A stretch of DNA of 62,214 nucleotides, the filler included, from Candidatus Woesearchaeota archaeon (GTDB taxonomy: Archaea > Nanobdellota > Nanobdellia > Woesearchaeales > GCA-2687795), in assembly GCA_030753365.1 (NCBI GenBank). It is 5 parts of 5 records of this genome, joined end to end, with 100 filler letters (N's around TTAATTAATTAA, not from the genome) between each part and the next. Parts side by side here need not be neighbours in the genome. Positions count along the whole stretch, not along the records: positions 1 to 24,254 come from JASMCJ010000007.1; positions 24,355 to 42,134 come from JASMCJ010000011.1; positions 42,235 to 50,978 come from JASMCJ010000012.1; 2 more parts are not named here. One strand, written 5' to 3'. The translations under genes were made by a program, and so were the position numbers. The notes below the pieces were generated by a model. That model was not told where the DNA came from. It did not search any database and saw nothing but the letters and a program-made list of their open reading frames with translations. How positions within the stretch are numbered: position 1 is the stretch's first letter; every line of letters begins with the position of its first letter. Shown one piece after another: positions 8,191 through 42,396 of the stretch.

Positions 8191-8264
8191 ATATTGTAGG
8201 GGTGGGCCATTGATTAGGCAGCTATAAGGGGAGGCTCTACATATTTAGTCGTTAGACTAAATAT
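8191..8264. repeat. G-rich repeat plus stop-codon hairpin, copy 1 (diverged)
   Basis: ATATTGTAGGGGTGGGCC...TAAGGGGAGG, then ATATTTAGTC-GTTA-GACTAAATAT. Confidence 0.65.
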
Positions 8265-9291
8265 ACGCATCTAACCCTTTCTGCATCTTCTCCTTCTTAT
8301 CCTCATTCAACTCATCAACAGTCTTCATCACTCTCTCCTTTGAAAAATCATGCTCTTCAACCAGCATCTTAACCAACTTATCAGTGTCAGCGGCTTTCCA
8401 TTCAAGCTCATAATCATCACTAACCTTCATCTTCTTAATCAAATAAAAAACCTCTGTCCATGGGAACTCAAAAAACTCTCCCCACTTAACCTGCTTAAAC
8501 AAACCTTCAGGATCATCCTTAAACTCCTTAACCAGCTTCAACGCATTCTTTGGCCCAATTCCCTTAATCCCTCCAGGATTATAATCAGTGCCAACAAGCA
8601 TACTCAAAATAATCAATTGGTCATGCTCAATCCCCAGATGATTAATATTCTCATCCAGCTTAATCATCTCAGGCTTAATAGTACCATAAGCAAGCTTATT
8701 AATCTTCTTCCTTTTCCCAAGAATAGAAAGATTCCTCACCAATCTTGTTGCTCCAAACAGCAAAGCATCAGCATCATTCGAAGCAACAGCAAACCCATCA
8801 CCTCTCTTAACAATATACGCAGCCTGCGCCTCCGCCTCTGACGGTGCATCTATAACAGGCAATCCCAGCGCTTTAATTAATTTTTTAGCCTCATCAATCA
8901 TCTCCTTGTTTAACCTACTCGTCCTTGACGCAAACTTCTTCATCCCTTCTACATCCTTCCTCTTAACAGCCTCTTCATACTTCTTCATAGCTTCAAGCTT
9001 AATTCCCTTCCTTCTCTCAAGTTCTCTCCTTTTTAATTCAGGCTTTTCCCCATCAAAAACAAAAGCCAGCAAAAGTCCTTTCTTCATAAGATTAGGTATC
9101 CTTGAAAACAACCCAATAAGATGTGAAGTAATCATCCCATTAGAATCAGTAAGCGAAGAACCATCTCTCTGCCTAATAGAAGAAAGAAACTGGTAAAGCC
9201 ACATAGGAGTATCAACAATAAGCACCTTATTCTCCAGTTCTTTAACATCAATATCCTTCTTCACAATCAAATCAGTAATAGCAACGCCCAT
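8257..9291 (-). CDS. fen: Flap endonuclease 1
   Basis: LYQFLSSIRQRDG, FVFDG, APSEAEAQAA, GTDYNPGGIKGIGPK, C-terminal PIP box QKGLDAYI. Confidence 0.97.
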   Translation of the reverse strand: MGVAITDLIVKKDIDVKELENKVLIVDTPMWLYQFLSSIRQRDGSSLTDSNGMITSHLIGLFSRIPNLMKKGLLLAFVFDGEKPELKRRELERRKGIKLEAMKKYEEAVKRKDVEGMKKFASRTSRLNKEMIDEAKKLIKALGLPVIDAPSEAEAQAAYIVKRGDGFAVASNDADALLFGATRLVRNLSILGKRKKINKLAYGTIKPEMIKLDENINHLGIEHDQLIILSMLVGTDYNPGGIKGIGPKNALKLVKEFKDDPEGLFKQVKWGEFFEFPWTEVFYLIKKMKVSDDYELEWKAADTDKLVKMLVEEHDFSKERVMKTVDELNEDKKEKMQKGLDAYI

Positions 9292-9333
9292 TTTATATAA
9301 TCAAGAAATTATGTAATACTTAATCATTTCGGT

Positions 9334-10269
9334 TTAGATACCCTTAATCTGCATCCCCTTAAACTCCTTATTCAACATCATCTTTGCCTTCTTAGTAACA
9401 TCCCCTGTAGTCAAAAACAATGCAGGCAGCTTCTTAGACTGCGCCTGGATATAAACAGTAGATAAATCACCTTCATTAATCTTCTTCTTATTCTTTGCCT
9501 TGCAGAAATAAGCCAAATTTCCAACTGAACTTGAAAGCTCCACCAAAAACTCAATATCATTATTCTTTCTAATCACATTCTGGTTAACCACTTTAATATC
9601 ATTCTCTTTAAAAAACTCCAGCACATTCTTAAGAAACTCATCACTCTTCAGCTTAGAAACCTTCTTCTTTACAGACCTTTCCTTCATAACAGGATGAACA
9701 GCTTCTTTCTTACCAACAGAGTTGGTGCCGGATGTAGTCCGAGCATCATCAGGTTTTATCTCTTTCTTCTCCACTTCTTTTACAACATTTCTATTTTCTT
9801 TCGTTTCCTTAACCTTTTTTTCCTTCTTAACATTAAGCTCCTTCCTAATCAACTCTTCAACATCCTGATTAGAAAGCAAATACCATTTCCAGAAAGTTTC
9901 AATAACACCTTTATAATTCACATTCAAAGGCACAGCAAAATCCTTAATCTGCCTTAACGCAACCCTATCAATAGGCTCAAGCATGCTATCTCTCAACACT
10001 TTTTTTTCCTTCAGCAAATCATAGCTCTTCTTCTCCTTCTCATGTAGCTTATTAGAATATCCCTGCAGCTTCTCCTCCTGCCCCTTAACATAATACAAAG
10101 GGCTGCCGCCAATCTTAAGGTTAGAAATCTTAACCATATTCTCAGAAGCCAGCTCAGAAAGGACAGCTGCTGCCATAATAATACTAGTCTTCAGCTCTGA
10201 ACCAATCTGTACAGGAATCAACGGCCCATCCCTCTCCACAATCTTAAGAACATCATCTCTATTAAGCAT
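9334..10269 (-). CDS. Hypothetical protein (possible N-terminal wHTH, charged linker)
   Basis: 311-aa ORF co-oriented with neighbours; function not recognised. Confidence 0.75.
   Translation of the reverse strand: MLNRDDVLKIVERDGPLIPVQIGSELKTSIIMAAAVLSELASENMVKISNLKIGGSPLYYVKGQEEKLQGYSNKLHEKEKKSYDLLKEKKVLRDSMLEPIDRVALRQIKDFAVPLNVNYKGVIETFWKWYLLSNQDVEELIRKELNVKKEKKVKETKENRNVVKEVEKKEIKPDDARTTSGTNSVGKKEAVHPVMKERSVKKKVSKLKSDEFLKNVLEFFKENDIKVVNQNVIRKNNDIEFLVELSSSVGNLAYFCKAKNKKKINEGDLSTVYIQAQSKKLPALFLTTGDVTKKAKMMLNKEFKGMQIKGI
9713..9747. repeat. 35-bp double-hairpin palindrome inside a CDS, copy 1
   Basis: 34/35 identical to 24820-24854 (opposite strand); encodes DARTTSGTNSVG. Confidence 0.85.
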
Positions 10270-10321
10270 AATAAAAAGAAAAAGAATATTCGTTTAAATA
10301 AATTTATGTTTTACACAACAA

Positions 10322-10924
10322 TCAAGGCCTTAACCACCTAATCTCATAATAGGTAACATCCCCTTCATCATCAACAATCCCAATCAACAATCTCTTCTTA
10401 GTAGAATGTGCAACCCTATTCTTAGCGGCAAACTCATACCATGTAATAGTAGAACCTTCATGCACAGGATAAACCACCCATCTTGCATGATCCTCACCAG
10501 GCTTAACTCCTCTGTCATAAATCCTGAAATCTGCTCCAAACTTCAAAGCAGTCTTAATAATATATCCTCTATTCCTAATATCCTTAAACACGCAAAACCT
10601 TACCCATATATTAGGCTCAACCTTCTGCGCTTTCTTTAAGAACTTTTCAAACGTGATTTTATGATTCCTGCCATCTACAACCTTAAGTCTTCCCTTTTCC
10701 ATAAGATACAAAGCCTCAAGCAGTGATAACTGAACCTTACCATCTTCCACTACGCTTCCATACCTGCTTTGATTATAAAGTTCTCTTGCTTCATCAGAAT
10801 TCTCTGTCAAAACCCTCTCTCTTGAGAAAAATGCAGTAATTTCCTTCTTATTATCAGTATCCTCACTACCTTCATCCTTCAAAATACTGGTATCCTTCTT
10901 ACTTTTTGCCTTTTTCTTAGCCAT
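10322..10924 (-). CDS. endA: tRNA-intron (splicing) endonuclease
   Basis: LSLLEALYL, RGYIIKTALKFGADFRIY..H, RVAHSTKK; Tyr/His/Lys triad present. Confidence 0.95.
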   Translation of the reverse strand: MAKKKAKSKKDTSILKDEGSEDTDNKKEITAFFSRERVLTENSDEARELYNQSRYGSVVEDGKVQLSLLEALYLMEKGRLKVVDGRNHKITFEKFLKKAQKVEPNIWVRFCVFKDIRNRGYIIKTALKFGADFRIYDRGVKPGEDHARWVVYPVHEGSTITWYEFAAKNRVAHSTKKRLLIGIVDDEGDVTYYEIRWLRP

Positions 10925-11046
10925 ATACCTTTAAAAACACAAGGAGCTTATAAAATTTATTATTTAAGTAATCAAAAGCTTTAAATATCAGTAAACCAAA
11001 AATCCTACACATAGTTTATAATATAAGATACTATGGGTGACAATCT

Positions 11047-12483
11047 ATGTTGAAAAGGGGTATATTACTTGGAATAATGCTTATCTTAAGCTCTTTTTAC
11101 GTCTTAGGCTATGGTTTTGATGTATCTATTGAACCCATAAAAACATCTATTTTTATAACAGAAGGAGCTGAATACAAGCTCACAGTCAAGAGCAACCTTG
11201 ACTATGAAAACAGATACAGAATAGTTCTGCCTGACTTCTCTCTCTGGAGCGTGCAGACAAGCCCTCAATCTCACAGATTGTCAGGAATGTTAATCCCTGC
11301 TAATTCAGAAGTCTCAACCACTCTAAAAGTATATCCCACTGAAAAAGTTTGGCCTGGAAGATACCAAATAAAAATCATTGTTGACTCAGAAAAAACAGAC
11401 GAAGAAGTAAGAAAAGTCATTGACTTAAGCCTTCTCTCTGGTGAATACCATCAGGACGAGTTTAAGCCTGAAATTCTTATAACATTAGAATTGCCTAATG
11501 AAGGAAAACTAGATCCAAGACAAAGGCAGACCATTAAGGTAGGGGTTAAGAACAAGAATCTATTAAACATAGCAGATTTAAGCTTAAGCCTCAAGAGCGC
11601 GTTGATTGATGAACAGAAAACAGGCATAAGCCTAAAACCCTTAGAAAAAAAGATAGAAGAGTTTACATTTACGTTTGATTCAACTCAAGAGCCTCTTGAA
11701 GACTCCTTAATTACGACAGTAACAGTTCTTGACAAAACATTCACAGTAGTAAGCGATTATGATGTAATAGGCTTTACCGAATCATTCCAGAAAGAGGTAA
11801 AAACTGAAAAGGGACTACTCAAAACCAAGCAAATAATTACTCTAACAAACCCCAGCAATGTTCCTGCTGAAGAACTATACCAAATAAAAACAAACCCTTT
11901 CCAAAGATTATTTGCTTCCTCAAATCCAAGAGCCTCTGTCGTTAAAGATGATGCAATCTACTTAGAATGGAAAGTTAACATTCCTGCGCAGGATTCAGTT
12001 AAGCTTGAAGTAACCGTAAACTATCTTCCTTTGGTTTTGATTATTGCCATCATATTGATTGGCACACTCTCTTATTATATTTTCAGAAGCCCTCTTATTG
12101 TTATAAAAAGTGTAAGGGAAATAAAAAGAAAGCATGATGGAATCTCTGAATTAAGCCTAATGCTAACAGTAAAGAACAGAACCAAAAAGCCAGTTAATGG
12201 TATTAAGCTCATAGACAAAGTTCCAAACATTATCCAAGTAGAGAAAGAGTTCAAAATAGGCACACTTCATCCAAGCAAGATAACCACTCATGAAGGTAGG
12301 GGAACAATAGTCACATGGAATATAGAATCTTTAGAAGAAATGGAAGAAAGAATTGTTACTTACAGCATGAAATCCAAGCTAAGCATAGTAGGCAAATTTG
12401 CTCTTCCTCCTGCTTCAGTAAAATTCAAAGACAAAAGAGATAAGATTATAGTAGTGCATTCTAATGTTTTAAGTTTGAAATGA
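11047..12483 (+). CDS. Secreted/membrane-anchored beta-sandwich surface protein
   Basis: Signal peptide, beta-rich domains, internal TM helix. Confidence 0.65.
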   Translation: MLKRGILLGIMLILSSFYVLGYGFDVSIEPIKTSIFITEGAEYKLTVKSNLDYENRYRIVLPDFSLWSVQTSPQSHRLSGMLIPANSEVSTTLKVYPTEKVWPGRYQIKIIVDSEKTDEEVRKVIDLSLLSGEYHQDEFKPEILITLELPNEGKLDPRQRQTIKVGVKNKNLLNIADLSLSLKSALIDEQKTGISLKPLEKKIEEFTFTFDSTQEPLEDSLITTVTVLDKTFTVVSDYDVIGFTESFQKEVKTEKGLLKTKQIITLTNPSNVPAEELYQIKTNPFQRLFASSNPRASVVKDDAIYLEWKVNIPAQDSVKLEVTVNYLPLVLIIAIILIGTLSYYIFRSPLIVIKSVREIKRKHDGISELSLMLTVKNRTKKPVNGIKLIDKVPNIIQVEKEFKIGTLHPSKITTHEGRGTIVTWNIESLEEMEERIVTYSMKSKLSIVGKFALPPASVKFKDKRDKIIVVHSNVLSLK

Positions 12484-12516
12484 ATTTATAAATAAACTCA
12501 TATTCCCTTTTTCTTA

Positions 12517-13725
12517 ATGTTAGAACTACTCATAGCTGTACTGTTAGGGATTATGGCAGGAATAGTAACCGGCCTCATCCCCGGAATCCATATTAATCTT
12601 GTATCACTACTTCTCTTAAGCGCCTCTGCTTATTTTTTAAACATTACTTCTCCTTTAGTGTTGGCATGTTTTGTTATTGCCATGAGTGTTACACACACAT
12701 TCTTAGATTCTATTCCATCTATCTTCTTAGGAGCGCCTGACCCTGACATGGCGTTAAGTGTATTGCCAGGGCATAAGTTGTTGCTAGAAGGGAAAGGCTA
12801 TGAAGCAGTTAAATTAACTGTAATAGGCTCCTTGCTATGTTTGATATTGACCATATTGATAATTCCTTTTATGATACCATTTGTGCCTAAACTATATTCA
12901 TTCATCCAACCTTACATGGGACATATATTGATATTTGTAGTTGCTTATATGATCCTAAAAGAGTCTGGGCTTAATAAAAAGGTACTTGGTCTTTTCATAT
13001 TCACCTTCTCCGGAATTCTGGGCTTAATTGTGTTAAACACCCCTAACCTAAATCAACCCCTTCTTGCCATGCTATCTGGACTATTTGGTGTGAGCACACT
13101 GGTTACGTCTCTAAGTGATAACGTAGAAGTCCCCAAGCAAACAATAACAGACTCAATCAAAATACCAAAGTTAAACACCATAAAAGCCTTAGGGGCAGCA
13201 GTCTTCTCTGGAAGTTTGACAGGCATGATGCCAGGCCTTGGAGCAGCCCAGGCAGCAGTGCTAGGCATGCAAATAGTAGGCAACATTGGACCCTATGCAT
13301 TCATGATACTGATTGGAGGTATTAATACTGTTAATTTCTTATTTTCTTTGGTTACTTTGTATACACTCCAGAAAGCAAGAAACGGCGCAGTCGTAGCAGT
13401 CCTAGAAATCGTGAAAAGCATAGATTTAGTTGACTTGATAGTCTTAATTTGTTGTGCTGCTATAGCTGGTGGCATCGCAACCTTCCTTGCCATGTACATC
13501 ACAAAAGGCTTCTCAAACATCATCAGCAAAATCAATTACAAAGCAATCTGCATCTCAATAATAGTACTCATCTCCATATTGGTCTTAATCTTCAACGGCC
13601 CATTAGGCATCCTCATCCTGATAACCAGCACAGCATTGGGAATAATACCTCCTCAATTAGGTGTGAAAAGAAGTCTTAGTATGGGATGTCTGTTACTGCC
13701 TGTGATAATGTTCTTTATGCTTTAA
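12517..13725 (+). CDS. TctA/DUF112 family membrane protein
   Basis: TGLIPGIHIN, THTFLDSIPSIFLGAPD, LPGH motifs. Confidence 0.85.
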   Translation: MLELLIAVLLGIMAGIVTGLIPGIHINLVSLLLLSASAYFLNITSPLVLACFVIAMSVTHTFLDSIPSIFLGAPDPDMALSVLPGHKLLLEGKGYEAVKLTVIGSLLCLILTILIIPFMIPFVPKLYSFIQPYMGHILIFVVAYMILKESGLNKKVLGLFIFTFSGILGLIVLNTPNLNQPLLAMLSGLFGVSTLVTSLSDNVEVPKQTITDSIKIPKLNTIKALGAAVFSGSLTGMMPGLGAAQAAVLGMQIVGNIGPYAFMILIGGINTVNFLFSLVTLYTLQKARNGAVVAVLEIVKSIDLVDLIVLICCAAIAGGIATFLAMYITKGFSNIISKINYKAICISIIVLISILVLIFNGPLGILILITSTALGIIPPQLGVKRSLSMGCLLLPVIMFFML

Positions 13726-13769
13726 GAAATCATCCAGCACCATCCATCCAGTTCATCAAATGCTTCCCT

Positions 13770-13845
13770 ATTTGTTAGGGGTGGGACACGCTACTAAGCA
13801 GCGATAGTGGGGAGGCCCTAAGTATTTAGCGAAGCTAAATGCTTA
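13770..13845. repeat. G-rich repeat plus stop-codon hairpin, copy 2
   Basis: ATTTGTTAGGGGTGGGACAC...GCGATAGTGGGGAGG, then TAAGTATTTAGC-GAA-GCTAAATGCTTA. Confidence 0.8.
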
Positions 13846-14118
13846 ACCTATAGCCCGTCTAGCATCAACAACTTCAGCAGAATTCACTTCTTTAATCTTC
13901 TTAACTTTCTCTTCAAGAGCTTCTGTTGATCCAAGTGCTTCATCCATCACAAAGATTAAGTTCAAAGCCTTCAGTCCAAATGCTATCGGCTCAACTTCCA
14001 CTTTGCCAACCTCTCCGCCAAACTCAGAAATCTCCTTCTTAGCCTCTTCCTCAATCTTACCTAAATCAGCATCAGGACCAGAAGGCATAATCTTCATTGT
14101 AACAATTAAATCTGTCAT
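13843..14118 (-). CDS. ef1b: Translation elongation factor aEF-1 beta
   Basis: KIMPSGPDADL, EPIAFGLKAL. Confidence 0.95.
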   Translation of the reverse strand: MTDLIVTMKIMPSGPDADLGKIEEEAKKEISEFGGEVGKVEVEPIAFGLKALNLIFVMDEALGSTEALEEKVKKIKEVNSAEVVDARRAIG

Positions 14119-14178
14119 TTTATAATTAGATTTATCAGTCTATATATAAACATTTTCATAAAAAAAGAAAAAAAAAGA

Positions 14179-14580
14179 TTAAACCTTAACCACATAGGTC
14201 TTGGCAATCTTATCATGCAATCCCTGCTTTCTGACATCCCATCCAATCATAAAATACCCTATAAACAATATAAGGGTGGACAATATTTTGCCAATATACC
14301 TTAAAATAGCCATCGGAATGCCAATAAATTCACCTTTCTCATTAACAATCCTCATCCCTAAAATCAACTTTCCAGGAGTTCCTCCTTTAATACCATCCAA
14401 ATAAATCACTAAAACCGCCATAGCCAACGAAACAAGATAACTTAATGATCGCATACCAGTAAAATACACTAACACAAACTGTATAATCCCTGCCGGTATC
14501 CCAATTATCAAACTATCCAAAAACGCTGCCACAAACCTTATCCAAAACCCGCCATAAACTGGCTGTTTCATATTTATCAT
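14179..14580 (-). CDS. RDD family membrane protein
   Basis: GFWIRFVAAFLD, TPGK, QGLHDKIAKTYVV. Confidence 0.9.
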   Translation of the reverse strand: MINMKQPVYGGFWIRFVAAFLDSLIIGIPAGIIQFVLVYFTGMRSLSYLVSLAMAVLVIYLDGIKGGTPGKLILGMRIVNEKGEFIGIPMAILRYIGKILSTLILFIGYFMIGWDVRKQGLHDKIAKTYVVKV

Positions 14581-15587
14581 TTTTTACCTCCTTTTTTTAA
14601 TCTTTTAAAATCAACATACGAAAGAAACAAGAAAAGATATTCAAAAGTGAACACAAACGATTCCAGCATTAAAAAAAACAAAACAAGAACTAAATTAATA
14701 GCCACTTTAACCAAATTAGACTCAAAAAAGAGGCTTAAATAAGTATTATACAATGGTTGCCCCACAAAACTATTAATAAATATTGTAATTCCTACAATCA
14801 TAAAAAGTATAATCAAAACCTGCTTTAAATGCCCCTTTGTCATCTGAAAACTCTGCTTTATAGACCTCAAAGGTCCTTGTTCTTCAACAAACATTATTGG
14901 CGTTGCAAAAAACAACTTTAATGACATAAAAATTAAGTAACCAAAAAACAATATTATAAAAAGAAAAATCGATAATATCCCTAGGATTTCATTAACAAAA
15001 AAAAGCATTCCTCCAAGCCCTGCCAGAACCATTGCAGGTATAAATACAATAAAACCAATCAATACTCTCATTGAAAAAAACTTTAACATAAATCTATTAG
15101 TCATCCTCAGCAAATTATTACTCTTTTTCTTCTTTATAGCCAATGCAATCATCAAATAAGCCTTACTGGAAAAATAAAACGAACTAATCATACTCAATAA
15201 AACAAAAACAATCCCCATCACAACATTCTTAGCATTTAACAGTTCCTTATACCTGCTCCAGTCATATCCCTTTCCCTCTAGATATTCTTCAAAATCATCA
15301 TTATAAGTTGAACTTTCTGAATCTTTACCTAAATAATTTATTAATTCCTTACTATAATTATCTGTGCCAATATTTTCTTTACTTAACAAATAATCAGTTT
15401 TTTCCTTATCAAAGTCTTCATTAGCGGAAGCAAGCTCCCTCAACAAAGGGCTTACACCAGAAAGGCTAAAAAACAATGAAATCAAAATCAACGGAACAAC
15501 AATAGAAAACAACACTGGGACCATAATCTTCTTATGCTTCATTAACAGATTAAATCCATCTTCAAAATCTTTCTTAATATCTATCAT
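14577..15587 (-). CDS. Multi-pass membrane protein
   Basis: Several TM segments; SIKQSFQMTKG pattern. Confidence 0.7.
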   Translation of the reverse strand: MIDIKKDFEDGFNLLMKHKKIMVPVLFSIVVPLILISLFFSLSGVSPLLRELASANEDFDKEKTDYLLSKENIGTDNYSKELINYLGKDSESSTYNDDFEEYLEGKGYDWSRYKELLNAKNVVMGIVFVLLSMISSFYFSSKAYLMIALAIKKKKSNNLLRMTNRFMLKFFSMRVLIGFIVFIPAMVLAGLGGMLFFVNEILGILSIFLFIILFFGYLIFMSLKLFFATPIMFVEEQGPLRSIKQSFQMTKGHLKQVLIILFMIVGITIFINSFVGQPLYNTYLSLFFESNLVKVAINLVLVLFFLMLESFVFTFEYLFLFLSYVDFKRLKKGGKK

Positions 15588-15620
15588 TATCCTACTAAAT
15601 ACAAAGCTTCTATATAAACA

Positions 15621-16739
15621 TTATCCCCTCCCAAACACAGCCACACCAATCTCCAATTTCCCCAACCAAATCTTTCTTTCACTAATTACTTTAAACTTAT
15701 ACCTCTCAGCCTTCTCCTTCAACAACCCAACATCATTAGAAACCACCACAATCCTACCCTCCTTAGCCAAACAATAATTCGCCTGATAAAACAACTCCTG
15801 ATACAGCTTCAAAATCTCCTTCTTATTCCACTTATCAGAAATCACAGGAGGATAACAAACAATCCTATTAACTTCTCCTTTTTTAAAATGCGTATCAATC
15901 CATTCAACTCCTGCATTAGAAAACTCAACATCAACCCCTGCAATCTTAGCATTCTTCTTAGCAGACACTATATGAAAAGGCACGCCTTCATACCCAAAAA
16001 TCTTACCACTCTTCCTAACCTTCTTCTCAAAGAACTTCTTAAAATCCGTCTTCAAAAAAGGCTTCAGCTTCAAAAACCTAAACCTCTCCTTATTAAAATA
16101 ATTAACAGGAAACCCAGAAGCAAACAACGCAGCCTCAATCGGTATAACTCCAGTCTTGCAAAAAGGATCTAACAAAACATCCTTATTAAACCCGCTAAGC
16201 CTAACCAAAGCATAAGCTATAGTGCCCTTAATATCATTAGGATGGTTAAACACCTTATACTGTCTTTTACTTAAATCAAACCCTGCAAAATCAACCCCAA
16301 AATAAAAACTATTCTCAAATATATAAGCATAAAACACAACATCAGGCTTATCCAAACTAACCTTATTCTCCAAAGGCATAAGCTCTCCAATCTCCTTCTC
16401 AACATCCTGGCTGGAAAACTTATGCTTCCCAACCCTTCTGCACTCAACCATAAACTTACTACTTTTATCAAGCCATTCCCCATAATCAATCTTCTTAGAG
16501 CCAAACTTCTTCAGCAAATCCTTCTTATCCTTAAACTCAAAACTCTCCAACAAAAAAAGCACTCTTGAAACCGATTGCCCCTTATAACAAAGTGTGCACA
16601 AATCAAGAATTTTTTTAGGTTCAAACACCACAACCGATTCCTTCACACTACCCTCTACCTTAATCAGCTCCTTAATCTCTAAAGCAGTAATATCTTCAAT
16701 ACCCTTTGATGTAATAGCCAAAGCTTTCATAATAATCAT
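15621..16739 (-). CDS. THUMP-domain RNA methyltransferase (Trm14/RlmL-like)
   Basis: TSKGIEDITALE, DLSKRQYK, LLDPFCKTG, YPP. Confidence 0.8.
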   Translation of the reverse strand: MIIMKALAITSKGIEDITALEIKELIKVEGSVKESVVVFEPKKILDLCTLCYKGQSVSRVLFLLESFEFKDKKDLLKKFGSKKIDYGEWLDKSSKFMVECRRVGKHKFSSQDVEKEIGELMPLENKVSLDKPDVVFYAYIFENSFYFGVDFAGFDLSKRQYKVFNHPNDIKGTIAYALVRLSGFNKDVLLDPFCKTGVIPIEAALFASGFPVNYFNKERFRFLKLKPFLKTDFKKFFEKKVRKSGKIFGYEGVPFHIVSAKKNAKIAGVDVEFSNAGVEWIDTHFKKGEVNRIVCYPPVISDKWNKKEILKLYQELFYQANYCLAKEGRIVVVSNDVGLLKEKAERYKFKVISERKIWLGKLEIGVAVFGRG

Positions 16740-16836
16740 TAACTCTTTATCGTATATATATGGTTTTGGGTATTTTTATCACAAAATCCATAGAAACCTT
16801 TTTAAATACAATTCATATCCTCTATTATACCAGTGA

Positions 16837-16864
16837 CTGATGATAACCATTAACATGGTTTGAG
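16837..16864 (+). promoter_or_regulatory. Candidate kink-turn in the L7Ae leader
   Basis: CTGATGA-T-AACCAT-TAAC-ATGGTT-TGA, downstream of a TTTTTAAA box. Confidence 0.5.
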
Positions 16865-16912
16865 AGAGGTTTTTACTTCTCATATATATCTGCACTTAGG
16901 AGGAAAATTAAA

Positions 16913-17263: not shown

Positions 17264-17265
17264 AA

Positions 17266-17634: not shown

Positions 17635-17635
17635 A

Positions 17636-17818: not shown

Positions 17819-17819
17819 A

Positions 17820-33313: not shown

Positions 33314-33361
33314 TAGTAGATAAGGAAAAACTTTTATATTCTAAGATTTATAATAAGATTA

Positions 33362-33748: not shown

Positions 33749-34839
33749 CTCTTTTTGCGGAGGAAGTTTCTGATCCTGTATGATTTTTGATAAAAGACTA
33801 AATCTTTTTTTGCTTCTTTTAGTTTTTTTCCTTCATAGACTACTGCATACAGTTCTTCCAGTATGGGAAGATGAAGCCTTGATTGTGTTGTTAGATCATA
33901 CATTGACTTAACTACTCTCAAACCTTCAATGCAGTCATGTTTCATCTTTCTCTTAGCAGCTTTCAAGCTATGCCTTGCCATAAGCCTTCCAAATCTTCCG
34001 TTTCTTCCAAACTTGTAGGTAACTTCAAGGTCAGGGTATCCTGCAGGAGTGTTATCGTATGTTGCTGGATTCATCTTTAGATATTTGAGGATCCTTTTGG
34101 TATCTCTTCCGCAAGCATAGAAAAAGTTTGCAACTGCATTACCTTTAAAGCCAAGTCCAATGCAAGCTCCAAGTGCCATGGCATAGACTTGTTTAAGAAT
34201 TCCACAGTATTCAACAGATTTAACATCATCGCTTCTATGTAAGAGTAGGTAAGGTTTGCATTCCAGCTTGGAAAAAAGACCTGAATTTACTTTGTCTGAA
34301 TCAAAGGCAATCACTGAGCATGCGGGCTGTGTTTCAGTGCTTTTGTTGAGCAGATCCCTTGCTCTTTTTATAAGGCTTTTGTCAAAGTTTGAGGCAACCT
34401 CCCTAGCAATGTTCGGTCCTGATAATACTGCATAGGGCTTGTCTGGCATAACCTCTTCAAAAGCATATGAGATGGGCTTATCGTCTATGACTCCTTTTGA
34501 AGCGTTTACAAACTGCTTAAAATCAAGCTCTCTAAGCCTTAACAGATAGTCCATCAGATATTGAGAAGGTATAGTTGAGACAACTATATCAGAACCGTTA
34601 ACAACATCCTCAAGGCTCTCAGAAACAGAAACATTTTCTGGAACTTCAACATGAAGGAAGCCTTTCTTGGGAAGATGTCTGTGCTTGCTTACATATTCTG
34701 CTAAAGAGCCTTTATATGCTCTGCTCTCTGGGCGTATCCAAAGGTTTATATCAACATTATCATCATTTAGATACTTATTACCATAGAGAACAGCAAGAGT
34801 GGTGCCCCATCTGCCTCCACCTAATACAGATAATTTCAT
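33727..34839 (-). CDS. gpsA: NAD(P)H-dependent glycerol-3-phosphate dehydrogenase-like protein
   Basis: VLGGGRWGTTLA, ASKG, VLSGPNIAREV, VEYCGILK, GRN, IEG. Confidence 0.85.
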   Translation of the reverse strand: MKLSVLGGGRWGTTLAVLYGNKYLNDDNVDINLWIRPESRAYKGSLAEYVSKHRHLPKKGFLHVEVPENVSVSESLEDVVNGSDIVVSTIPSQYLMDYLLRLRELDFKQFVNASKGVIDDKPISYAFEEVMPDKPYAVLSGPNIAREVASNFDKSLIKRARDLLNKSTETQPACSVIAFDSDKVNSGLFSKLECKPYLLLHRSDDVKSVEYCGILKQVYAMALGACIGLGFKGNAVANFFYACGRDTKRILKYLKMNPATYDNTPAGYPDLEVTYKFGRNGRFGRLMARHSLKAAKRKMKHDCIEGLRVVKSMYDLTTQSRLHLPILEELYAVVYEGKKLKEAKKDLVFYQKSYRIRNFLRKKSHIIPAR

Positions 34840-34928
34840 TGTATATTTGGAGTTACTGTATGGTTTTTAAAGGTTGTTGTGGTATAGAACAAAAGGCTTT
34901 TAACAAATGCCTTATTTTATATGAATCT

Positions 34929-35207
34929 ATGGAAGAAATAATGACACGGCTTGAAGATTGGCTTAAGGATGTCGAGCTTCCAGAAATGGCTAAGACATGT
35001 ATTGAGAACTTCGTTTGCAGTTGTGAGCAGTTGGAGAAGAAAGATATGCTTAATTTTGTCTATTTAGATATAATACATTTCAGTTCTCAAGTTCAAGATA
35101 CGCTTATTCAGGGATTTTTCTATTCTTATTTTGGTGTTAACATAGAAAAAGATATGATTAAGCATTTTGTTGATTATTTTGTTGTTTCTGGGTATCATAA
35201 TAACTAG
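34929..35207 (+). CDS. Hypothetical protein
   Basis: MEEIMTRLED start within a longer ORF. Confidence 0.5.
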   Translation: MEEIMTRLEDWLKDVELPEMAKTCIENFVCSCEQLEKKDMLNFVYLDIIHFSSQVQDTLIQGFFYSYFGVNIEKDMIKHFVDYFVVSGYHNN

Positions 35208-35294
35208 AAACCCTAACATTTATAAACCATTTCGCATTTCTAGGGTATATAACCCGTAGACTACTCTACTATATGTGAGTAGGAGGGCATTAAA

Positions 35295-35972
35295 ATGGAT
35301 AAGAAACTAATACTAGACACTTTAGAGAAGGCTAAGAAAGACAGCAAGAAGCGAAACTTTAAGCAGTCAGTTGATTTGCTAATCAATCTTAAAGGGCTTG
35401 ACCTTAAAAAGCCTGAGCATCAAAAAGAATTCTTTATAACATTACATGAAGGTAGAGGTCAGAAGAGTAAAGTCTGCGCGCTTGTACCTGATGAATTAGA
35501 AGCAAAAGCAAAAGATGTCTATGATGCTGTTATAAAAGAATCAGACTTTGAGAGAACTTCTAAGGATAAGGCTTTAATGAGAAAGCTTGCAAAAGATCAT
35601 GAATATTTTGTTGCAATAGCTACAATCATGCCAAAGATTGCTATGCACTTTGGTAAAGTTCTTGGGCCAAAAGGAAAGATGCCAAACCCTAAATTAGGGT
35701 GTGTTCTGCCGCCTACTGCTGATATGAAACCTTTATATGAAAAGCTGCAGAAGACGTTGAGGATTACAATCAGAGCAAGTTCTCATGTATTATGCAAACT
35801 TGGCAAAGAAGATGATGATGTGGAAAAGATTTATGATAATCTAATGACAATATACAATGGTGTGGTATCACACCTTCCAAATGATAAGCAGAATGTTAAG
35901 AATGTATGCCTTAAGCTTACAATGGGACATCCTATCAAGATAGAGAAAGAAAAAGAAAAACAGAAGAAATAA
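35295..35972 (+). CDS. rpl1p: Ribosomal protein uL1
   Basis: KRNFKQSVDL, GKVLGPKGKMP, KLTMG. Confidence 0.97.
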   Translation: MDKKLILDTLEKAKKDSKKRNFKQSVDLLINLKGLDLKKPEHQKEFFITLHEGRGQKSKVCALVPDELEAKAKDVYDAVIKESDFERTSKDKALMRKLAKDHEYFVAIATIMPKIAMHFGKVLGPKGKMPNPKLGCVLPPTADMKPLYEKLQKTLRITIRASSHVLCKLGKEDDDVEKIYDNLMTIYNGVVSHLPNDKQNVKNVCLKLTMGHPIKIEKEKEKQKK

Positions 35973-35978
35973 ATTAAA

Positions 35979-37517
35979 ATGGCGCATGTTGCAGAATATA
36001 AGAAGGAAATTGTAAAGTGTTATGTTGATGATATTGCTAAATATCCTGTAATTGCAGTTGCAAACCTTGAGAGCCTGCCAGCTCAGCAGCTGCAGAATAT
36101 AAGGGGACAGATAAGAGGAACAATAGCACTAAGGATGAGCAGAAAGAAGCTTATGAAACTGGCTATTGAACAATCAAAAGAATCTAAAAAGAATGTTGAA
36201 GCTTTGATAGAACATTTTGATGGCATGCCAGCGTTAGTGTTTACAGAAGAAAACCCGTTCAAACTTTTTAAGATATTGTCAAAGAACAAGAGCAGCGCTC
36301 CTGCAAAAGCAGGACAGAAAGCTCCTAAAGATATAATCATCAAGCCAGGCGCAACACAGTTTGCTCCAGGACCAGTTATCAGTGAGCTAAGCTCAGTTGG
36401 CCTTAAAGTTGGTGTTGAAGATGGAAAAGTTGCAGTGAAAGAGGAATGCACGCTTGTGAAAGGCGGTGAAGTTATTACTGAAGAAATGGCTAATGTTCTT
36501 GCAAAGCTGGGAGAAAAGCCAATGGAAGTTGGGCTTAACCTTACAGCAGTTTATGAAAAAGGAACAATATTCTTAAGAGATGTGCTTGATATAGATGAAG
36601 AGAAATTCATGAGCAATCTTTGTGAGGCAGGTGCATCAGCATTGAACCTTGCAGTAGAAATTGGTTATCCTACAAAAGATACAATTGAATTATTGGTTGG
36701 CAAGGCAGGTCTTGCTGCTAAAGCTATAGCAAAGGAATGCAATATACTTACAAGTGAAACAGTAAGCGATTCATTGGAAGCTGCTGAAAGAGAATCTCTT
36801 GGCTTGAAAGATGCAGCAGGCGTGGAAGTGCCTGAGAAAAAGGTAGAAGAAAAGCCAGTTGAAGAGAAGCCTAAGGAAGAAGCAGCTCCAGTAGAAGAAA
36901 AGGCTCCTGTTGAAGAAAAACAGAAAGAGGAAAAGCCAACTGAAGCAGAGAAGCCTAAAGAAGAGGTAGCTCCTGTAGAAGAAGTTAAAGCTGAAGAGAA
37001 GCCTGAAGAAAAACCAGTTGAGAAAGCCAAAGCTGAAGAACCTAAGGAAAAAGAACAGCCTAAAGAGAAAGAGCCTGTTGAAGAGCTTGCAGAAGAAATG
37101 TCCAAAGAAGAGCATAAGCCTTCTGAAGATAAAAAGGAAGAGTCTAAACAGGAAGAAAAACCTATTGAAGAACCTAAACCAAATGAGCAGAAACCTCGTG
37201 TAATGGATAAGGTTGATAGGGAAGTTGATAAGATGGTTCAGAATGTGAAAGATCATGAAAGCGGAGAAGATAAGAAAAAAAGCGCTGAATTCATAGTTAA
37301 TGAAATAGAAACTCAGGAAAAAGTCAGGAAAGAGGAAAAGAAAAAAGAAGGTGAAATTAAAGAAAAAGAAGAACAGCAGTTAAAACCTGGAGAAATTCCT
37401 AAAGCAGATGATTTAGCAGCTAAAAATAAAAAAGCTGAAGATAAAAAGGATGAAGAGCAGGCTAAAGCTGAAGAACTTTTTGAAAAGCTTAAGAAGAAAG
37501 GCACTTTGAGGGAATAA
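35979..37517 (+). CDS. rplP0: Ribosomal protein uL10 (P0) with ~230-aa K/E/P-rich tail
   Basis: MAHVAEYKK, NPFKL, APAKAG, FAPGP. Confidence 0.95.
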   Translation: MAHVAEYKKEIVKCYVDDIAKYPVIAVANLESLPAQQLQNIRGQIRGTIALRMSRKKLMKLAIEQSKESKKNVEALIEHFDGMPALVFTEENPFKLFKILSKNKSSAPAKAGQKAPKDIIIKPGATQFAPGPVISELSSVGLKVGVEDGKVAVKEECTLVKGGEVITEEMANVLAKLGEKPMEVGLNLTAVYEKGTIFLRDVLDIDEEKFMSNLCEAGASALNLAVEIGYPTKDTIELLVGKAGLAAKAIAKECNILTSETVSDSLEAAERESLGLKDAAGVEVPEKKVEEKPVEEKPKEEAAPVEEKAPVEEKQKEEKPTEAEKPKEEVAPVEEVKAEEKPEEKPVEKAKAEEPKEKEQPKEKEPVEELAEEMSKEEHKPSEDKKEESKQEEKPIEEPKPNEQKPRVMDKVDREVDKMVQNVKDHESGEDKKKSAEFIVNEIETQEKVRKEEKKKEGEIKEKEEQQLKPGEIPKADDLAAKNKKAEDKKDEEQAKAEELFEKLKKKGTLRE

Positions 37518-37572
37518 AAATTATACTTACAATTAATTTAAAAAAAATATGATTGAATAGGAGGAATTAACA

Positions 37573-37887
37573 ATGGAATACATACACGCAGCATTGCTTT
37601 TACACAAAGCAGGTAAAAAGGTAGATGAGCCTTCCGTAAAGAAGGTGCTTGAAGCAGCAGGCGTTGCTCCAGATGATGGTAGAGTGAAAGCTTTAATAGC
37701 ATCACTTGAAGGAGTTAACATAGACGAAGCTGTACAGAAAGCATCAGTTCCAGTTGCTCAGGCAGCTCCAGCAGGAGAGGCTAAAAGCGATGGGAAAAAG
37801 GAAGAAGGAAAGAAAAAAGAAAAACCTGCTGAAGATGAAAAATCAGAAGAAAAAGCAGCTGAAGGATTGTCTAGTTTATTCGGCTAA
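37573..37887 (+). CDS. rpl12p: Ribosomal stalk protein P1 (aL12)
   Basis: [11 protein letters not shown] ... GLSSLFG. Confidence 0.97.
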
Positions 37888-37902
37888 GAGTAATGGCTTA
37901 AA

Positions 37903-38808
37903 ATGCTTTCAAGGGAAGAGGAAACTGAGTTAACTAAGGAATTAGGTAAAGTCAGGAAGGAAATAGTAGATTTAGGAAGAGAGCTAACCCTTGTTGATGA
38001 AGAGAAAGAAGCAGCCTTTGAAAATAAAGAGAAGTATGATAATGACATTGATGAAGCTATAAAGAAAATTCGGCTTTTGAAAGCAGGAAGAGATTCTCTT
38101 ATTTCTCAGATTAAAGATGATAAAGAACTAAGAAAAGTGCTGAACACAGAGTTCAGGCAGAATGTTCTCAAGATTAAAGAAGTAAGAGAATCTCAAAAAG
38201 CGTTGATAGAAAAGCATGGAATAAGTGATCCTACCAGAATAAAAGAAACTATAGGAGATATGGAGTATAAAATAGAAACAGAAGTCATGTCCTTTGAAAA
38301 AGAAAAGGAATTAATGAAAAAGATAAAAGATCTCAAGAAGAAAAGCGGTAAAGTAAGTACCTTATATAATCTTAGCAAAGAGATAAGTGATAATTCTAAG
38401 GATTTAAACATATTAAAAGATGGCTCAAATGATGTTCACCAAAAGATACAAAGTAGAGCATTAACTGCGCAGAATAAGCATGAAGAGTTCATAACCATCA
38501 TAAAAGGGATTGATGAACTCAAGAAGAAAAAGAGTGAATGGCTGCAGAAGTTCTTTAAGCTGAAAATGAAATACACAACAGTGAATGCAGCATTGAAAGA
38601 GAAGCTTGGCATAATGAATGGATTAAATAATAAATATCGAGAAAATTTTAAAGGTAAGAAGAAAAAGAAAGAAGAAATAATCAAAGAGCAGCTCAAAAGC
38701 AAAGAAGAGATTGTACAGAATAAAATGAAAAATGGGGAGAAGCTTACTAATGAGGATTTGTTGGTGTTCCAGGCAGAAAGTAATTTGATAGATAGAAAAA
38801 ACCATTAA
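37903..38808 (+). CDS. Archaeal coiled-coil protein (COG1340-like)
   Basis: Long heptads, IETEVMSFEKEK, GEKLTNEDLLVFQ. Confidence 0.7.
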   Translation: MLSREEETELTKELGKVRKEIVDLGRELTLVDEEKEAAFENKEKYDNDIDEAIKKIRLLKAGRDSLISQIKDDKELRKVLNTEFRQNVLKIKEVRESQKALIEKHGISDPTRIKETIGDMEYKIETEVMSFEKEKELMKKIKDLKKKSGKVSTLYNLSKEISDNSKDLNILKDGSNDVHQKIQSRALTAQNKHEEFITIIKGIDELKKKKSEWLQKFFKLKMKYTTVNAALKEKLGIMNGLNNKYRENFKGKKKKKEEIIKEQLKSKEEIVQNKMKNGEKLTNEDLLVFQAESNLIDRKNH

Positions 38809-38854
38809 TTCTTTAGTTTAGAATGTATGATAAATTATTCTTAGTAACTAATAT

Positions 38855-39049
38855 TTATTCTTTCTTTCCCAGAAAATTAGTGTAACCGCACTTGCCACAG
38901 CTTTCCCTGTCATTATGCTTTGCAAGGAAGACTCCTTCACCGCACTTAGGGCAGGACTTGTTCTTTCTCTTTAACTCACTGCCTGATGCATCATACATTT
39001 CCCCTTTCTTGTTTTGTTTATGGGGCTTGCCTTTTGCTTTCTTTGCCAT
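38855..39049 (-). CDS. rps27ae: Ribosomal protein eS31 (S27ae)
   Basis: [20 protein letters not shown]. Confidence 0.96.
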
Positions 39050-39056
39050 CTTCTAA

Positions 39057-39467
39057 TTATTTCTTAGCTTCCTCTTTGTTATCATCTTTAGCTTCAGGTT
39101 TTGCTTCTTTTTTAGGAGTTTCCTCCTTCTTAGCGTCTCCCTTTGCTTCTGCTGGCTTTTCTGGTTCTTTCTTCTCTTCCTTAGGTTTCTTACCTTCTCC
39201 TTTCTTCTTTTTGCCTTCCTTTGGCTCAATCTTTTTCATGTTTTCTTCGTCTTTGTAAACATAAGCCAAAACACTTGCTTTCTCAAGGCCAAATGCTGTT
39301 TTTATTTCTTTTATAATAGTAAGCTCTGGCTTTGAAGCAGTCTTCTCAGCAATCTGTTTTTTAACAGCTTCTTTAGATGGAGTGCTACCTGTAAAATTTA
39401 GTTCAGCTCTAACTTCAATCCTGTGAAGCAAAGGGTTTTCAGTCTTTGATTTGATTTCTAAGTTCAT
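39057..39467 (-). CDS. rps24e: Ribosomal protein eS24 with K/E tail
   Basis: ENPLLHR, STPS, TAFG. Confidence 0.94.
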   Translation of the reverse strand: MNLEIKSKTENPLLHRIEVRAELNFTGSTPSKEAVKKQIAEKTASKPELTIIKEIKTAFGLEKASVLAYVYKDEENMKKIEPKEGKKKKGEGKKPKEEKKEPEKPAEAKGDAKKEETPKKEAKPEAKDDNKEEAKK

Positions 39468-39504
39468 TTTTATTAAGATTTATTTTGATTAGAGTCTATG
39501 TTAT

Positions 39505-39687
39505 CTATCTTACCTTGATAGCGTACTCGCCTTTGACTGTGATCTCCATCTTCTGCGCAATCATTGACTTGTTAGCATCAGCAATGAAAATCCTGCCCTG
39601 CCAGTTTGTACTAAATTGGTTACCCTTACAAACGGGGCAGTTGTTGCCATCTACAAATAGTTTACAGCTTTTGCATACTTTTTTCAT
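39505..39687 (-). CDS. spt4: Transcription elongation factor Spt4 (RpoE'')
   Basis: CKSC..CPVC..WQG..GEYAIKVR. Confidence 0.95.
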   Translation of the reverse strand: MKKVCKSCKLFVDGNNCPVCKGNQFSTNWQGRIFIADANKSMIAQKMEITVKGEYAIKVR

Positions 39688-40307
39688 TTTTTAGCCTTAG
39701 TTTTTTTACTTTTAGTCTCTTTGGTTTCCTTAGCGCTGGTTTTAGCAGGCGCTTTCTTCTTCTTAGTTGTTTCTTCTTCAATCCAATCTAATCTGCCTAA
39801 GAAAGGCTGTCGCATTGTCAATCCTAACTTAGGGTTGGCAACATCCTTGAAAGAAACAGCAATGATTCTTGCTTTGCATAAATCGTTAACTTTCAGTGAT
39901 CTCTTGCTTTCCTTGCCGGCCAAGACCTTATCCTTGCCAAAGGAAACAAAGTCATCCATGGTCTGTGAAATATGAATCATTCCATCGATTGGTCCCATAG
40001 TGATAAACGCGCCAAAATCAGTAATATCTCTTATCTTGCCAGTTATAATTTCCTGTTGCTCTGGCTTGAATGATATAAGCTCAAAAGTTGTATCATAATA
40101 AGAGGCGCCGTCTCCTGGAATGATAACACCTTTACCTATCTCGTTTATATTTGTTACAGTAACAGCTATGCCAGTTTCCATAGATATAAACCCTTCATAT
40201 TTCTTATTAACAACCTGTAGTATAGCCTCTTCTACTGGTAAATCAAACAGAGTAGGTGATACTCTTATATGGTCTTTTATTGTTAATTTGTAAAACATTT
40301 TATTCAA
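39684..40307 (-). CDS. rpo7: RNA polymerase subunit Rpo7 (E')
   Basis: IIPGDG, FGAFITMGPIDGMIHISQ, LTMRQPFLG. Confidence 0.96.
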   Translation of the reverse strand: MNKMFYKLTIKDHIRVSPTLFDLPVEEAILQVVNKKYEGFISMETGIAVTVTNINEIGKGVIIPGDGASYYDTTFELISFKPEQQEIITGKIRDITDFGAFITMGPIDGMIHISQTMDDFVSFGKDKVLAGKESKRSLKVNDLCKARIIAVSFKDVANPKLGLTMRQPFLGRLDWIEEETTKKKKAPAKTSAKETKETKSKKTKAKK

Positions 40308-40683
40308 GTTTAAGATATCTTTTTTGTCTTATTGATATTATTCCTATGTTCTTTTGCTTTAATCTTGATTTAAGCTCTTTATCTTGCGTTGCGACAATGT
40401 GTTCCTTATTAACTATGTTCATGATTAAGTCATCAACAATCCTGTCTTTATCTGTTTTGATGATGCTTATATGCTTCTGTTTTATCAATGACAATGCAAG
40501 CTTTGCTGCTCTGCCATCTTTGCCTTTATTCTGCTCAATAAGTCCTTTAAGTTCATCTAAGGTCTTATCTATAATGTATAATTTATACCTGAAATCGCAG
40601 ATTCTTTGGATCTCAGCGAATATATCTATCCTGAACTGGCTCACAGCCATAAGGAAGTTTGTATCGAGTATTACTTGTATCAT
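40300..40683 (-). CDS. PIN-domain protein (Fcf1/Utp24-like)
   Basis: ILDTNFL, VDD, VATQDKEL; usual rpoE' neighbour. Confidence 0.9.
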   Translation of the reverse strand: MIQVILDTNFLMAVSQFRIDIFAEIQRICDFRYKLYIIDKTLDELKGLIEQNKGKDGRAAKLALSLIKQKHISIIKTDKDRIVDDLIMNIVNKEHIVATQDKELKSRLKQKNIGIISIRQKRYLKLE

Positions 40684-40719
40684 AGGATATCAGTTCCATT
40701 TATAAAGTTTACCATTAAA

Positions 40720-40983
40720 TTAATCTATTAATTCCTCAATATCTTTAATCTTTTTAGGATTTAAGCTAACTTCTAATCCATAATGAGTTGGCTTTGATAA
40801 AAGTATATGTTCTTTAAGAAGCTCTTCTACTGCTTTCTTAGTGTGTTTAGATATTCTTAATTCATTTGATAATCCTTTAGGAAGGTTATTAATATTTGTA
40901 TGTTTATGTAACCACATTCTTTTTCTATATAATTTTCTAATAATGAACTTTTTAATAATTAGCTTTTCATCCATAATCTCCAA
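40720..40983 (-). CDS. Small basic hypothetical (possible wHTH) protein
   Basis: 87-aa ORF divergent from an HTH gene. Confidence 0.6.
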   Translation of the reverse strand: MEIMDEKLIIKKFIIRKLYRKRMWLHKHTNINNLPKGLSNELRISKHTKKAVEELLKEHILLSKPTHYGLEVSLNPKKIKDIEELID

Positions 40984-41099
40984 AAAGGAGTTGTTATATT
41001 TATAGTTTTCGTTTTATGAACTATGGTTATTAAAATAGAAATGTTTAAATAATACCTCTAGATGTATATGTATATATAGATATATAGTTGTAAGATAAG

Positions 41100-41456
41100 A
41101 TGACAGAAGAAAAAACAAATGAAAAATCTGTATTCATAGAATACTTTGGGGACTATCCATTGATAAGAGTGTTAGATTTTCTAATCTTAGGTAGGGATAT
41201 GGACTACAGTATGACTGAAATAGCTAAGAATTCAGGGGTTGGCTGGACAGCTTTCTCCGAAATATGGCTTCAGCTAATTGAAAAAGATATTGTAACATTT
41301 ACAAGGAAGATAGGCAATGCAAAACTGTTTAGATTGAACGTGGAGAATCTATGGGTTAAAGAATTAATTAAAATGGATAAGATTATCACAAAGTTAGAGA
41401 CTGATAAATTACTTTCTGGAGCTGAACATGGAAAGCCTATGAAAGTAGAAGCGTGA
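41100..41456 (+). CDS. Winged helix-turn-helix protein
   Basis: RVLDFL..YSMTEIAKNSGVGW..TRKIGNAKLFRLN. Confidence 0.8.
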   Translation: MTEEKTNEKSVFIEYFGDYPLIRVLDFLILGRDMDYSMTEIAKNSGVGWTAFSEIWLQLIEKDIVTFTRKIGNAKLFRLNVENLWVKELIKMDKIITKLETDKLLSGAEHGKPMKVEA

Positions 41457-41585
41457 TTTAGTGTTTGGTTTAAATAATTAATAATGTGTCTTTTCTATTG
41501 TTTTGCTGATAATCTAGGCTTACTAATGTTTGTAGCTACCCATTAACCAAAACTTTAATAAGAAACTCTTTTCTAATATTATATT

Positions 41586-42134
41586 ATGCAAAAGAGGAGT
41601 GCTTTATTGATTTTAATATTGTTCTTTATCAACATAGCTTATGCTGCTGAAATAGATTCTTCTGTTGAAGAAAAATTGAATGATAAGGCCTCTGTTTCTG
41701 TGATAGTTGTGTTAAAAGATGTTGATTTATCTGAAGCTAGTAAGGGGATAAGCAGTGTATTTGAACAGAGAAAATCAAAAATAAAAGAACAGCAGGAAAG
41801 GGTTTTGGATTCATTGGAAGTAAAGTCTTTTGAACAACAAACAAAAAAGGGAATAAAAAGCTTAAATTCTGAAGAATATGACATTATGTTGAAACACAAA
41901 TATTCTACAATAAATAGTTTCTCTGGAGAAATTACACAAGAAGGGTTGGAAAAATTAAGAAAAAATCCTAATGTAAAGTCAGTTATTATCAATGGAAAGA
42001 AGGAATTGTTTCTTGATGTAAGCGTTCCAATGGTAAACGCATCCAACACATGGGGTTATGTGTATAATGACACAAACATAACTGGAAAAGGAGAAACAGT
42101 TTGTGTGATTGATACTGGGGTGGATTATACTCAT
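41586..42134 (+). CDS. S8 subtilisin-like protease with I9 prodomain, truncated by contig end
   Basis: Signal peptide; TGKGETVCVIDTGVDYTH catalytic Asp motif. Confidence 0.9.
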
Positions 42135-42234
42135 NNNNNNNNNNNNNNNNNNNNNNNNNNNNNNNNNNNNNNNNNNNNTTAATTAATTAANNNNNNNNNN
42201 NNNNNNNNNNNNNNNNNNNNNNNNNNNNNNNNNN
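42135..42234. other. Artificial contig linker
   Basis: N-run with TTAATTAATTAA. Confidence 0.99.
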
Positions 42235-42318
42235 TATCAGTTCTACGAGTGCAACATACCCTTGATGGGAATCTATTTACAGCATGCACATTCTATTTAG
42301 TTGTTTGAGTGCAGCCCC

Positions 42319-42396
42319 ATTTGTTAGGGGTGGGACACTCGAGAAGTTGTGCGGTAGTGGGGAGGAGTGAAATAAAAATCGAAGATTTTTGTTTTA
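42319..42396. repeat. G-rich repeat plus stop-codon hairpin, copy 3
   Basis: ATTTGTTAGGGGTGGGACAC...GCGGTAGTGGGGAGG, then AAATAAAAATC-GAA-GATTTTTGTTT. Confidence 0.8.

Follow-up and report, generated by a model that had tools for sequence, protein, structure and literature searches.

A gene-less G-rich element with a DNA-type hairpin at gene ends in Woesearchaeales

The window analysed here, a 62,214-nt stretch of Candidatus Woesearchaeota archaeon GCA_030753365.1, carries three copies of a gene-less, G-rich element of about 75-105 bases, each ending in a hairpin at the stop codon of an oppositely oriented gene. All three were present where a preliminary description had placed them. By using a pattern and profile scan, six copies were identified in the genome (~0.9 Mb), three in the window and three elsewhere; the profile was built from these same copies, and the next match came only at E 5.4. 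Under an order-3 Markov model, the chance expectation for the two-box pattern in this genome is 0.0005 matches. In all six copies the hairpin lies 14-17 nt past G box 2 and the stop codon of the oppositely oriented gene falls at +22 to +29. The scan for further copies called for by the preliminary description added three, all at stops. The host genes are FEN1, EF-1beta, a gene without assignment, DUF3467, PAC2 and rps11. In the window, the copies and their neighbours are arranged as follows.

7286..8167, minus strand: EamA-family gene, whose start directly adjoins the far end of copy 1
8167..8264, plus strand: copy 1, long form, with upstream TAGTT box at 8170, G box 1 at 8199-8206, G box 2 at 8228-8234 and hairpin at 8241-8264 (GTTA loop)
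8257..9291, minus strand: FEN1 host gene (XPG_N/XPG_I, Pfam), with its stop within the distal hairpin arm of copy 1
13735..13845, plus strand: copy 2, long form, with upstream box at 13749, G box 1 at 13778-13785, G box 2 at 13809-13815 and hairpin at 13819-13845 (GAA loop)
13843..14118, minus strand: EF-1beta host gene (Pfam), with a Gly-stop end at the foot of the copy 2 hairpin
42235..42297, plus strand: decayed upstream unit of a three-unit head-to-tail array, of which copy 3 is the last unit; the contig end cuts the array
42298..42397, plus strand: copy 3, with upstream box at 42298, G box 1 at 42327-42334, G box 2 at 42359-42365 and hairpin at 42367-42397 (GAA loop)
42394..42927, minus strand: copy 3 host gene, without Pfam match, with a Trp-stop end at the foot of the hairpin

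Copies 2 and 3 share 20/20 and 14/15 nt in the two blocks of the consensus first proposed; copy 1 fits this consensus only loosely. The copies also extend further than had been drawn, by about 30 nt in the 5' direction to a TAGTT[GC]T box (8170, 13749 and 42298), and copy 3 belongs to the array listed above. The loop starts 16, 15 and 15 nt past the last G in copies 1, 2 and 3 (GTTA, GAA and GAA), and each hairpin contains the stop of its minus-strand gene. On the plus strand these hairpins fold better than shuffled sequences, with z values of -5.2, -2.9 and -3.7. By eye, copy 3's host gene looks like a paralogue of the gene that converges on PAC2 (L011:311-928), both without Pfam match.

Parts of the element and its place at gene ends

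In the same order, 20 of 401 genomes carry the element, according to two pattern searches of the 401, a model search of 151 and inspection by hand; none of 248 genomes from other orders of the class does. A metagenome scan gave 56 loci, 7 of them dropped as look-alikes, and three scans of viral contigs returned 0, 0 and 9 hits, the nine being without G box 2 and hairpin, which leaves no viral copy. Three genomes are marked unpublished (G132, G207 and G209) and account for 9 of 80 hairpin rows, 8 of 73 flank rows and 3 of the 20 carriers.

Two size forms (~75 and ~105 bp) occur, together with short tandem arrays. Read on the G strand, the element opens with an optional TAGTT[GC]T box, followed by G box 1, a spacer and G box 2, after which come a short linker rich in A and the hairpin. 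The G tracts count 4, 3, 4 and 2 G, and the central spacer, of about 21-27 nt, often carries a second TAGTT[GC]T-type box. The starts of the G boxes lie 29-37 nt apart overall and 31-34 nt apart in 79/90 copies, which is about three helical turns. The usual G-quadruplex needs four three-G tracts joined by short loops, and here the last tract is two G long; a two-tier or vacancy form would be conceivable. Because the searches fixed the G boxes, the constancy of these boxes says nothing for a quadruplex or for a binding site. The core gave no consensus RNA fold and no covarying structure. HDV-like, twister and pistol ribozymes were considered by eye and dropped for want of pairing partners.

About 42 of 81 copies have the upstream box, 26-30 nt ahead of G box 1, and it looks like a remnant of a preceding array unit. 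Head-to-tail arrays are present in L010, L254 and L263, with G box 2 and hairpin in the last unit only; the three-unit array that the contig end cuts in the window is complete in L254 (L254:3040-3220), and it is homologous to the one at the PAC2 gene of the genome G001. In a search for G box 2 plus hairpin, six further hits were dropped as look-alikes, and every true hit cut out also has G box 1, except one decayed copy. Among individual loci, three long copies (L248, L140 and L265) have short stretches flanking the upstream box that are similar to the end of the host gene, giving the impression of a box inserted into a target repeat of older date, a pattern that is not significant in aggregate. 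In G001, one copy (L203) is split between G box 1 and the inner box by an insert of ~37 bp, and a lone hairpin without G boxes lies right after the EF-1beta stop (L210), either as a relic or as an independent structure.

Of 80 copies, 68 have the hairpin, whereas 1.6% of shuffles do, and a C..G pair closes it in 63 of the 68. The G-strand loop is GNA or GNNA in 39 (GAA 26, GTA 4, GCA 1, GNNA 8), and in three it is inverted (TTC 2, TAC 1). On the G strand, 11 stem positions are G-T and 2 are A-C, in agreement with the earlier remark that wobbles favour the plus strand. The stems had been thought to differ freely from locus to locus, which did not hold, since one family stem recurs across genomes and is shared by many copies. 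Loops of this type are described as far more stable in DNA than in RNA, as resistant to 3' exonuclease and as occurring at primase or priming sites of single-stranded origins (PMC13037366). The hairpin of the element is a DNA-type mini-hairpin that travels with it.

The position relative to genes was evaluated in 73 flanks outside MITE-like units (MITE, miniature inverted-repeat transposable element); one more, L003, was miscalled by the script. Between co-directional neighbours the C strand is the sense strand in 46 cases and the G strand in 4, which bears out the constant orientation noted at the outset. A stop codon lies within 65 nt in 53/73 flanks, and at +17 to +31 in 37. Where the stop falls at +24 to +31, it follows Gly or Trp in 17/23 cases (14/20 after orthologues were merged by hand), compared with 6.7% of 796 genes in the source genome. 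These ends are native, given that EF-1beta and DUF3467 have a Gly end in their empty orthologues too; the hairpin side of the element therefore seems to pick out GG(N)-stop through microhomology. Several copies are located ~20-45 nt within the beginning of the following gene, which the duplication described below restores. The proposal of a non-autonomous element that targets gene 3' ends remains favoured, with the amendment that the coupling is to a window around gene ends and not strictly to the stop codon; three copies in G001 lie away from stops. A terminator role, also proposed, is doubtful because 46/73 copies have co-directional genes on both sides, as does the copy that separates rps11 from rpoD.

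Empty sites and long target repeats

Empty orthologous sites, which the preliminary description had proposed to look for, were found at several loci. The FEN1-EamA junction is empty in G001 and G187, and in G001 the FEN1 stop overlaps the EamA start. The rps11-rpoD site is empty in all four genomes with a match, the DUF3467 end in three of four, and at EF-1beta the core is absent 3' of the gene in all five other genomes examined, G001 keeping a hairpin only. When two genomes have copies at the same gene, the spacers of these copies share an identity of 0.53 (18 pairs), hardly above the 0.47 of all pairs, and some of the closest pairs sit at different genes (L001/L011, 0.96; L007/L011, 0.91). 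A homologous three-unit array is found at different genes in G000 and G001, two species, which points to exchange between loci. The copies at PAC2 in G000 and G001 and at DUF3467 in G024 and G218, on the other hand, look vertically inherited.

Of the short copies, 7/36 are flanked by in-register direct repeats of 35-49 bp, each beating all cross-locus controls. These repeats start at the hairpin foot and stop just a few bases short of G box 1; in two of the seven, the last 10-17 bases have decayed. The part inserted between them measures 71-82 bp, is non-coding and contains both hairpin arms. Four of these inserts (L151, L187, L228 and L269) fall within the beginning of the following gene, whose start is restored by the repeat; for the other three (L239, L246 and L249) no gene start is involved. 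Among 46 long copies, one has a repeat, of 17 bp, abutting both ends. What looks like a 15-bp repeat at the EF-1beta copy is more readily accounted for as part of the element. Since empty orthologous sites exist, some of the closest copies occupy different genes and 7/36 short copies bear 35-49-bp direct repeats, the gene-less element is very probably mobile. Both the seven long repeats and the empty sites are independent of the unpublished genomes.

The same junctions bear on the proposal that the insertion reaction copies the final bases of the target gene in inverted form, through fold-back synthesis or a guide-like arm. In copies whose stop directly adjoins the loop, the distal arm belongs to the coding sequence, with a free arm to match; the distal arm is native coding sequence in rps11, L143, L250 and L253, and the empty DUF3467 site of G001 matches the distal arm in 7/8 bases. 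However, in the 7/7 copies with clear repeats both arms lie inside the insert and neither derives from the target, one stem family recurs across genomes, and the variable segment, tried as a guide, matched its flank no better than controls (9.15 vs 9.03). Such copying is therefore highly improbable, and the "inverted copy of the target" of the preliminary description is better read as microhomology targeting of Gly/Trp-stop ends with later correction of the stem.

A different explanation dispenses with a dedicated insertion reaction: a selected module of the 3' untranslated region, acting as an RNA-end protector, an attenuator, a C-rich anti-Shine-Dalgarno or a protein-binding site, could have spread by ectopic recombination and gene conversion. 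Stems that have stayed almost perfect even in old copies, including a compensated change across the rps11 stop codon that distinguishes two genomes, would suit selection of this kind, as would C-rich boxes always on the sense strand, the repeated use of the same genes and the array that moved between loci within the genus. This module nevertheless appears unlikely, as the element is confined to 20/401 genomes, its host genes are functionally unrelated, its core has no covarying structure and its DNA-type loops lie on the antisense strand; gene conversion should not give long target repeats, and no terminator-like site was found at copy 2, where only a bacterial rule was applied.

Candidate enzymes and a possible route of insertion

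Among neighbour proteins, 89 of 139 were scanned and included no transposase, no reverse transcriptase and no Y1 HUH enzyme, with a single XerA-like gene as the only find. TnpB was absent from the source genome (0 hits), and Cas1 from the five carriers examined. DDE_Tnp_1, the one DDE family searched, was present in one of five carriers (G001), with no matching terminal inverted repeat (TIR) beside either hit.

One candidate is an HUH enzyme: a non-autonomous partner of IS200/IS605 TnpA, RAYT or an IS91-type protein could be recognised through a hairpin on single-stranded DNA. The single-strand hairpin at one end, the fixed orientation and the short target motif would all fit, and the source genome has three Y1_Tnp hits. 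Yet TnpA occurs in 10/20 carriers against 132/401 genomes overall (p 0.14, with kin not independent), it was not found in the copy-rich G001, G018, G103 and G130, and the local TnpA loci of the source genome have no element-like ends. To our knowledge, the IS200/IS605, RAYT and IS91-type families make no long target duplication. A partnership of this type is accordingly improbable. The long variable target repeats, the fixed 3' end with microhomology and the shorter 5' forms would instead fit the geometry of a retroposon resembling short interspersed nuclear elements (SINEs), made by target-primed reverse transcription of a G-strand RNA. This too seems improbable, and slightly more so: RVT_1 was found in 0/20 carriers, whose genomes are incomplete, against 33/151 genomes of the order (22%), the loops suit DNA and not RNA, and there is no conserved RNA fold. 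Of the co-occurring genes that the preliminary description proposed to look for, neither HUH nor reverse transcriptase clearly tracks the element. The apparent depletion of reverse transcriptases in carriers may reflect relatedness.

The favoured route, put forward tentatively, is that a single G-rich DNA strand is joined to the chromosome by host replication or repair enzymes, leaving a long duplication. The element would move as this single strand, and its hairpin-side end would pair over a few bases with the sense strand, either at GG(N)-stop or at a stem-like stop, where DNA synthesis would join it. The other end would be joined ~40 bp further into the upstream gene, so that the intervening stretch would be duplicated. 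Surviving insertions would then be those between the stop codon and the first ~40 nt of the following gene, a span in which the duplication keeps both genes intact. If template switching within the inverted repeat later rewrote the free arm from the coding arm, the stem would look target-built and some loops would be flipped. Template switching in inverted repeats is established, and it would yield matching arms and flipped loops without any new reaction. By analogy with priming signals, a guess may be ventured that a host primase or polymerase recognises the mini-hairpin. Spread is likely to be of the copy-in type, fitting no described transposon family. A more far-reaching and rather doubtful extension is that the element is a minimal replicon-like parasite without an enzyme of its own kind, a G strand with a primase-type mini-hairpin written into gene ends by host primase and polymerase, and the best-defined member of an undescribed class of mobile DNA in DPANN archaea that duplicates tens of target bases.

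Several points weigh against mobility by this route. The G-box conservation is not independent of the search, eleven look-alike loci were removed before counting, and the genomes are related and incomplete. As the same genes are used repeatedly in distant genomes, old vertical inheritance with loss could account for part of the pattern. No empty allele of the two C7 copies was found in contigs of four sequencing runs, which may include the source sample, and both copies are fixed there; nor could any young copy be paired with its own empty allele. A significant target repeat is present in none of the six source-genome copies and is lacking in 45/46 long copies, and some repeats coincide with the start of the next gene, where later selection may have kept or made them. 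Finally, neighbour proteins and family searches gave no enzyme and no autonomous partner, so the chemistry is what we infer.

Mobile elements that are small and carry no gene usually depend on an enzyme that can be recognised, be it a transposase, a recombinase or a reverse transcriptase, and each of these leaves its typical signature at the junctions. The present family has defined ends, strand and target bias and 35-49-bp duplications, yet no usual enzyme tracks it. It offers ~90 natural copies for probing "insertion with long target duplication", which is known solely from comparing genomes, and shows how an insert can enter the overlapping genes of a streamlined genome without breaking them.

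Known systems and related repeats

The element resembles long-target-duplication inserts and REP-type gene-end repeats, and departs in a defining feature from MITEs, IS200/IS605 derivatives, retroposons, diversity-generating retroelements (DGRs) and restriction-modification inserts. REP/RAYT and IS200/IS605-derived elements are characterized by a DNA hairpin, a position just past stop codons and tandem arrays. The element shares with them a one-strand DNA hairpin near its end, the gene-end location and the arrays, but has an AT-rich stem, separate unpaired G boxes and long target repeats, and no TnpA dependence was seen. With SINE-like retroposons it has in common the long variable target duplication and the fixed 3' end, but its 20 carriers, with incomplete genomes, yielded no reverse transcriptase.

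Insertion with long target duplication, for which Nobusato 2000 is reportedly the cited source, likewise leaves repeats of more than 30 bp without a mobility gene. The inserts described consist of restriction-modification genes with long variable direct repeats (46 bp in two cases) and no transposase; they are bacterial, and no archaeal case passed the screen of that study (PMC2853133). In contrast to these, the element is gene-less, with a 71-82-bp insert, multiple copies, defined ends, a hairpin, target bias and one orientation.

Like prokaryotic MITEs, the element is small, non-coding, intergenic and multi-copy, and a Woesearchaeal genome is listed as MITE-dense (PMC11602168, PMC10969869). 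MITEs have TIRs of at least 10-15 bp and target duplications of 2-10 bp, whereas young element copies are without TIRs and their duplications are 35-49 bp in seven copies and 17 bp in one. As in the target hairpin of DGRs (PMC8632793), the point at which new DNA is joined is marked in DPANN archaea by a DNA stem-loop next to the 3' end of a gene; in the element, however, carriers are without reverse transcriptase, the hosts are housekeeping genes and the whole element is inserted. The same loop and closing-pair motifs, on one DNA strand, are found in the mini-hairpin priming signals of phage G4 and St-1 origins, RSF1010 ssiA and N4 promoters (PMC13037366). The element differs from these signals in being a chromosomal repeat at gene ends.

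MITE-like features are restricted to derived subsets. In G001 the element is embedded in a 114-bp unit (L006, L008 and L012) with 14-bp TIRs and ~5-bp repeats, and one TIR doubles as the distal hairpin arm. We take the ends of this unit to be of a type resembling ISH3; no transposase matching the unit was found. The second subset is a ~215-bp unit of the unpublished G209, with a different 10-bp TIR and five near-identical copies (L144, L155, L160, L164 and L171). In G132, three identical copies (L165-L167) stand at the edge of a longer multi-hairpin repeat. This long repeat and the five-copy TIR unit are drawn from unpublished genomes alone.

No Rfam or IS match was obtained: Rfam 15 gave none at the gathering score for the whole window and none for four loci at E up to 10. 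The literature search found no description of the element; subscription journals and supplements such as MITE census tables, which lay outside it, could list the TIR-bounded subsets. The look-alikes dropped before the counts were L139, L149, L150, L183, L231, L237, L242, L247, L261, L273 and L278, of which the last seven were treated as other families; they are repeats from metagenomes whose G boxes are similar but which have C-rich partners and lack the AT-rich hairpin. The source genome also holds a separate two-hairpin repeat family (C8, C34, C37, C50 and C69), which has no sequence in common with the G-box element.

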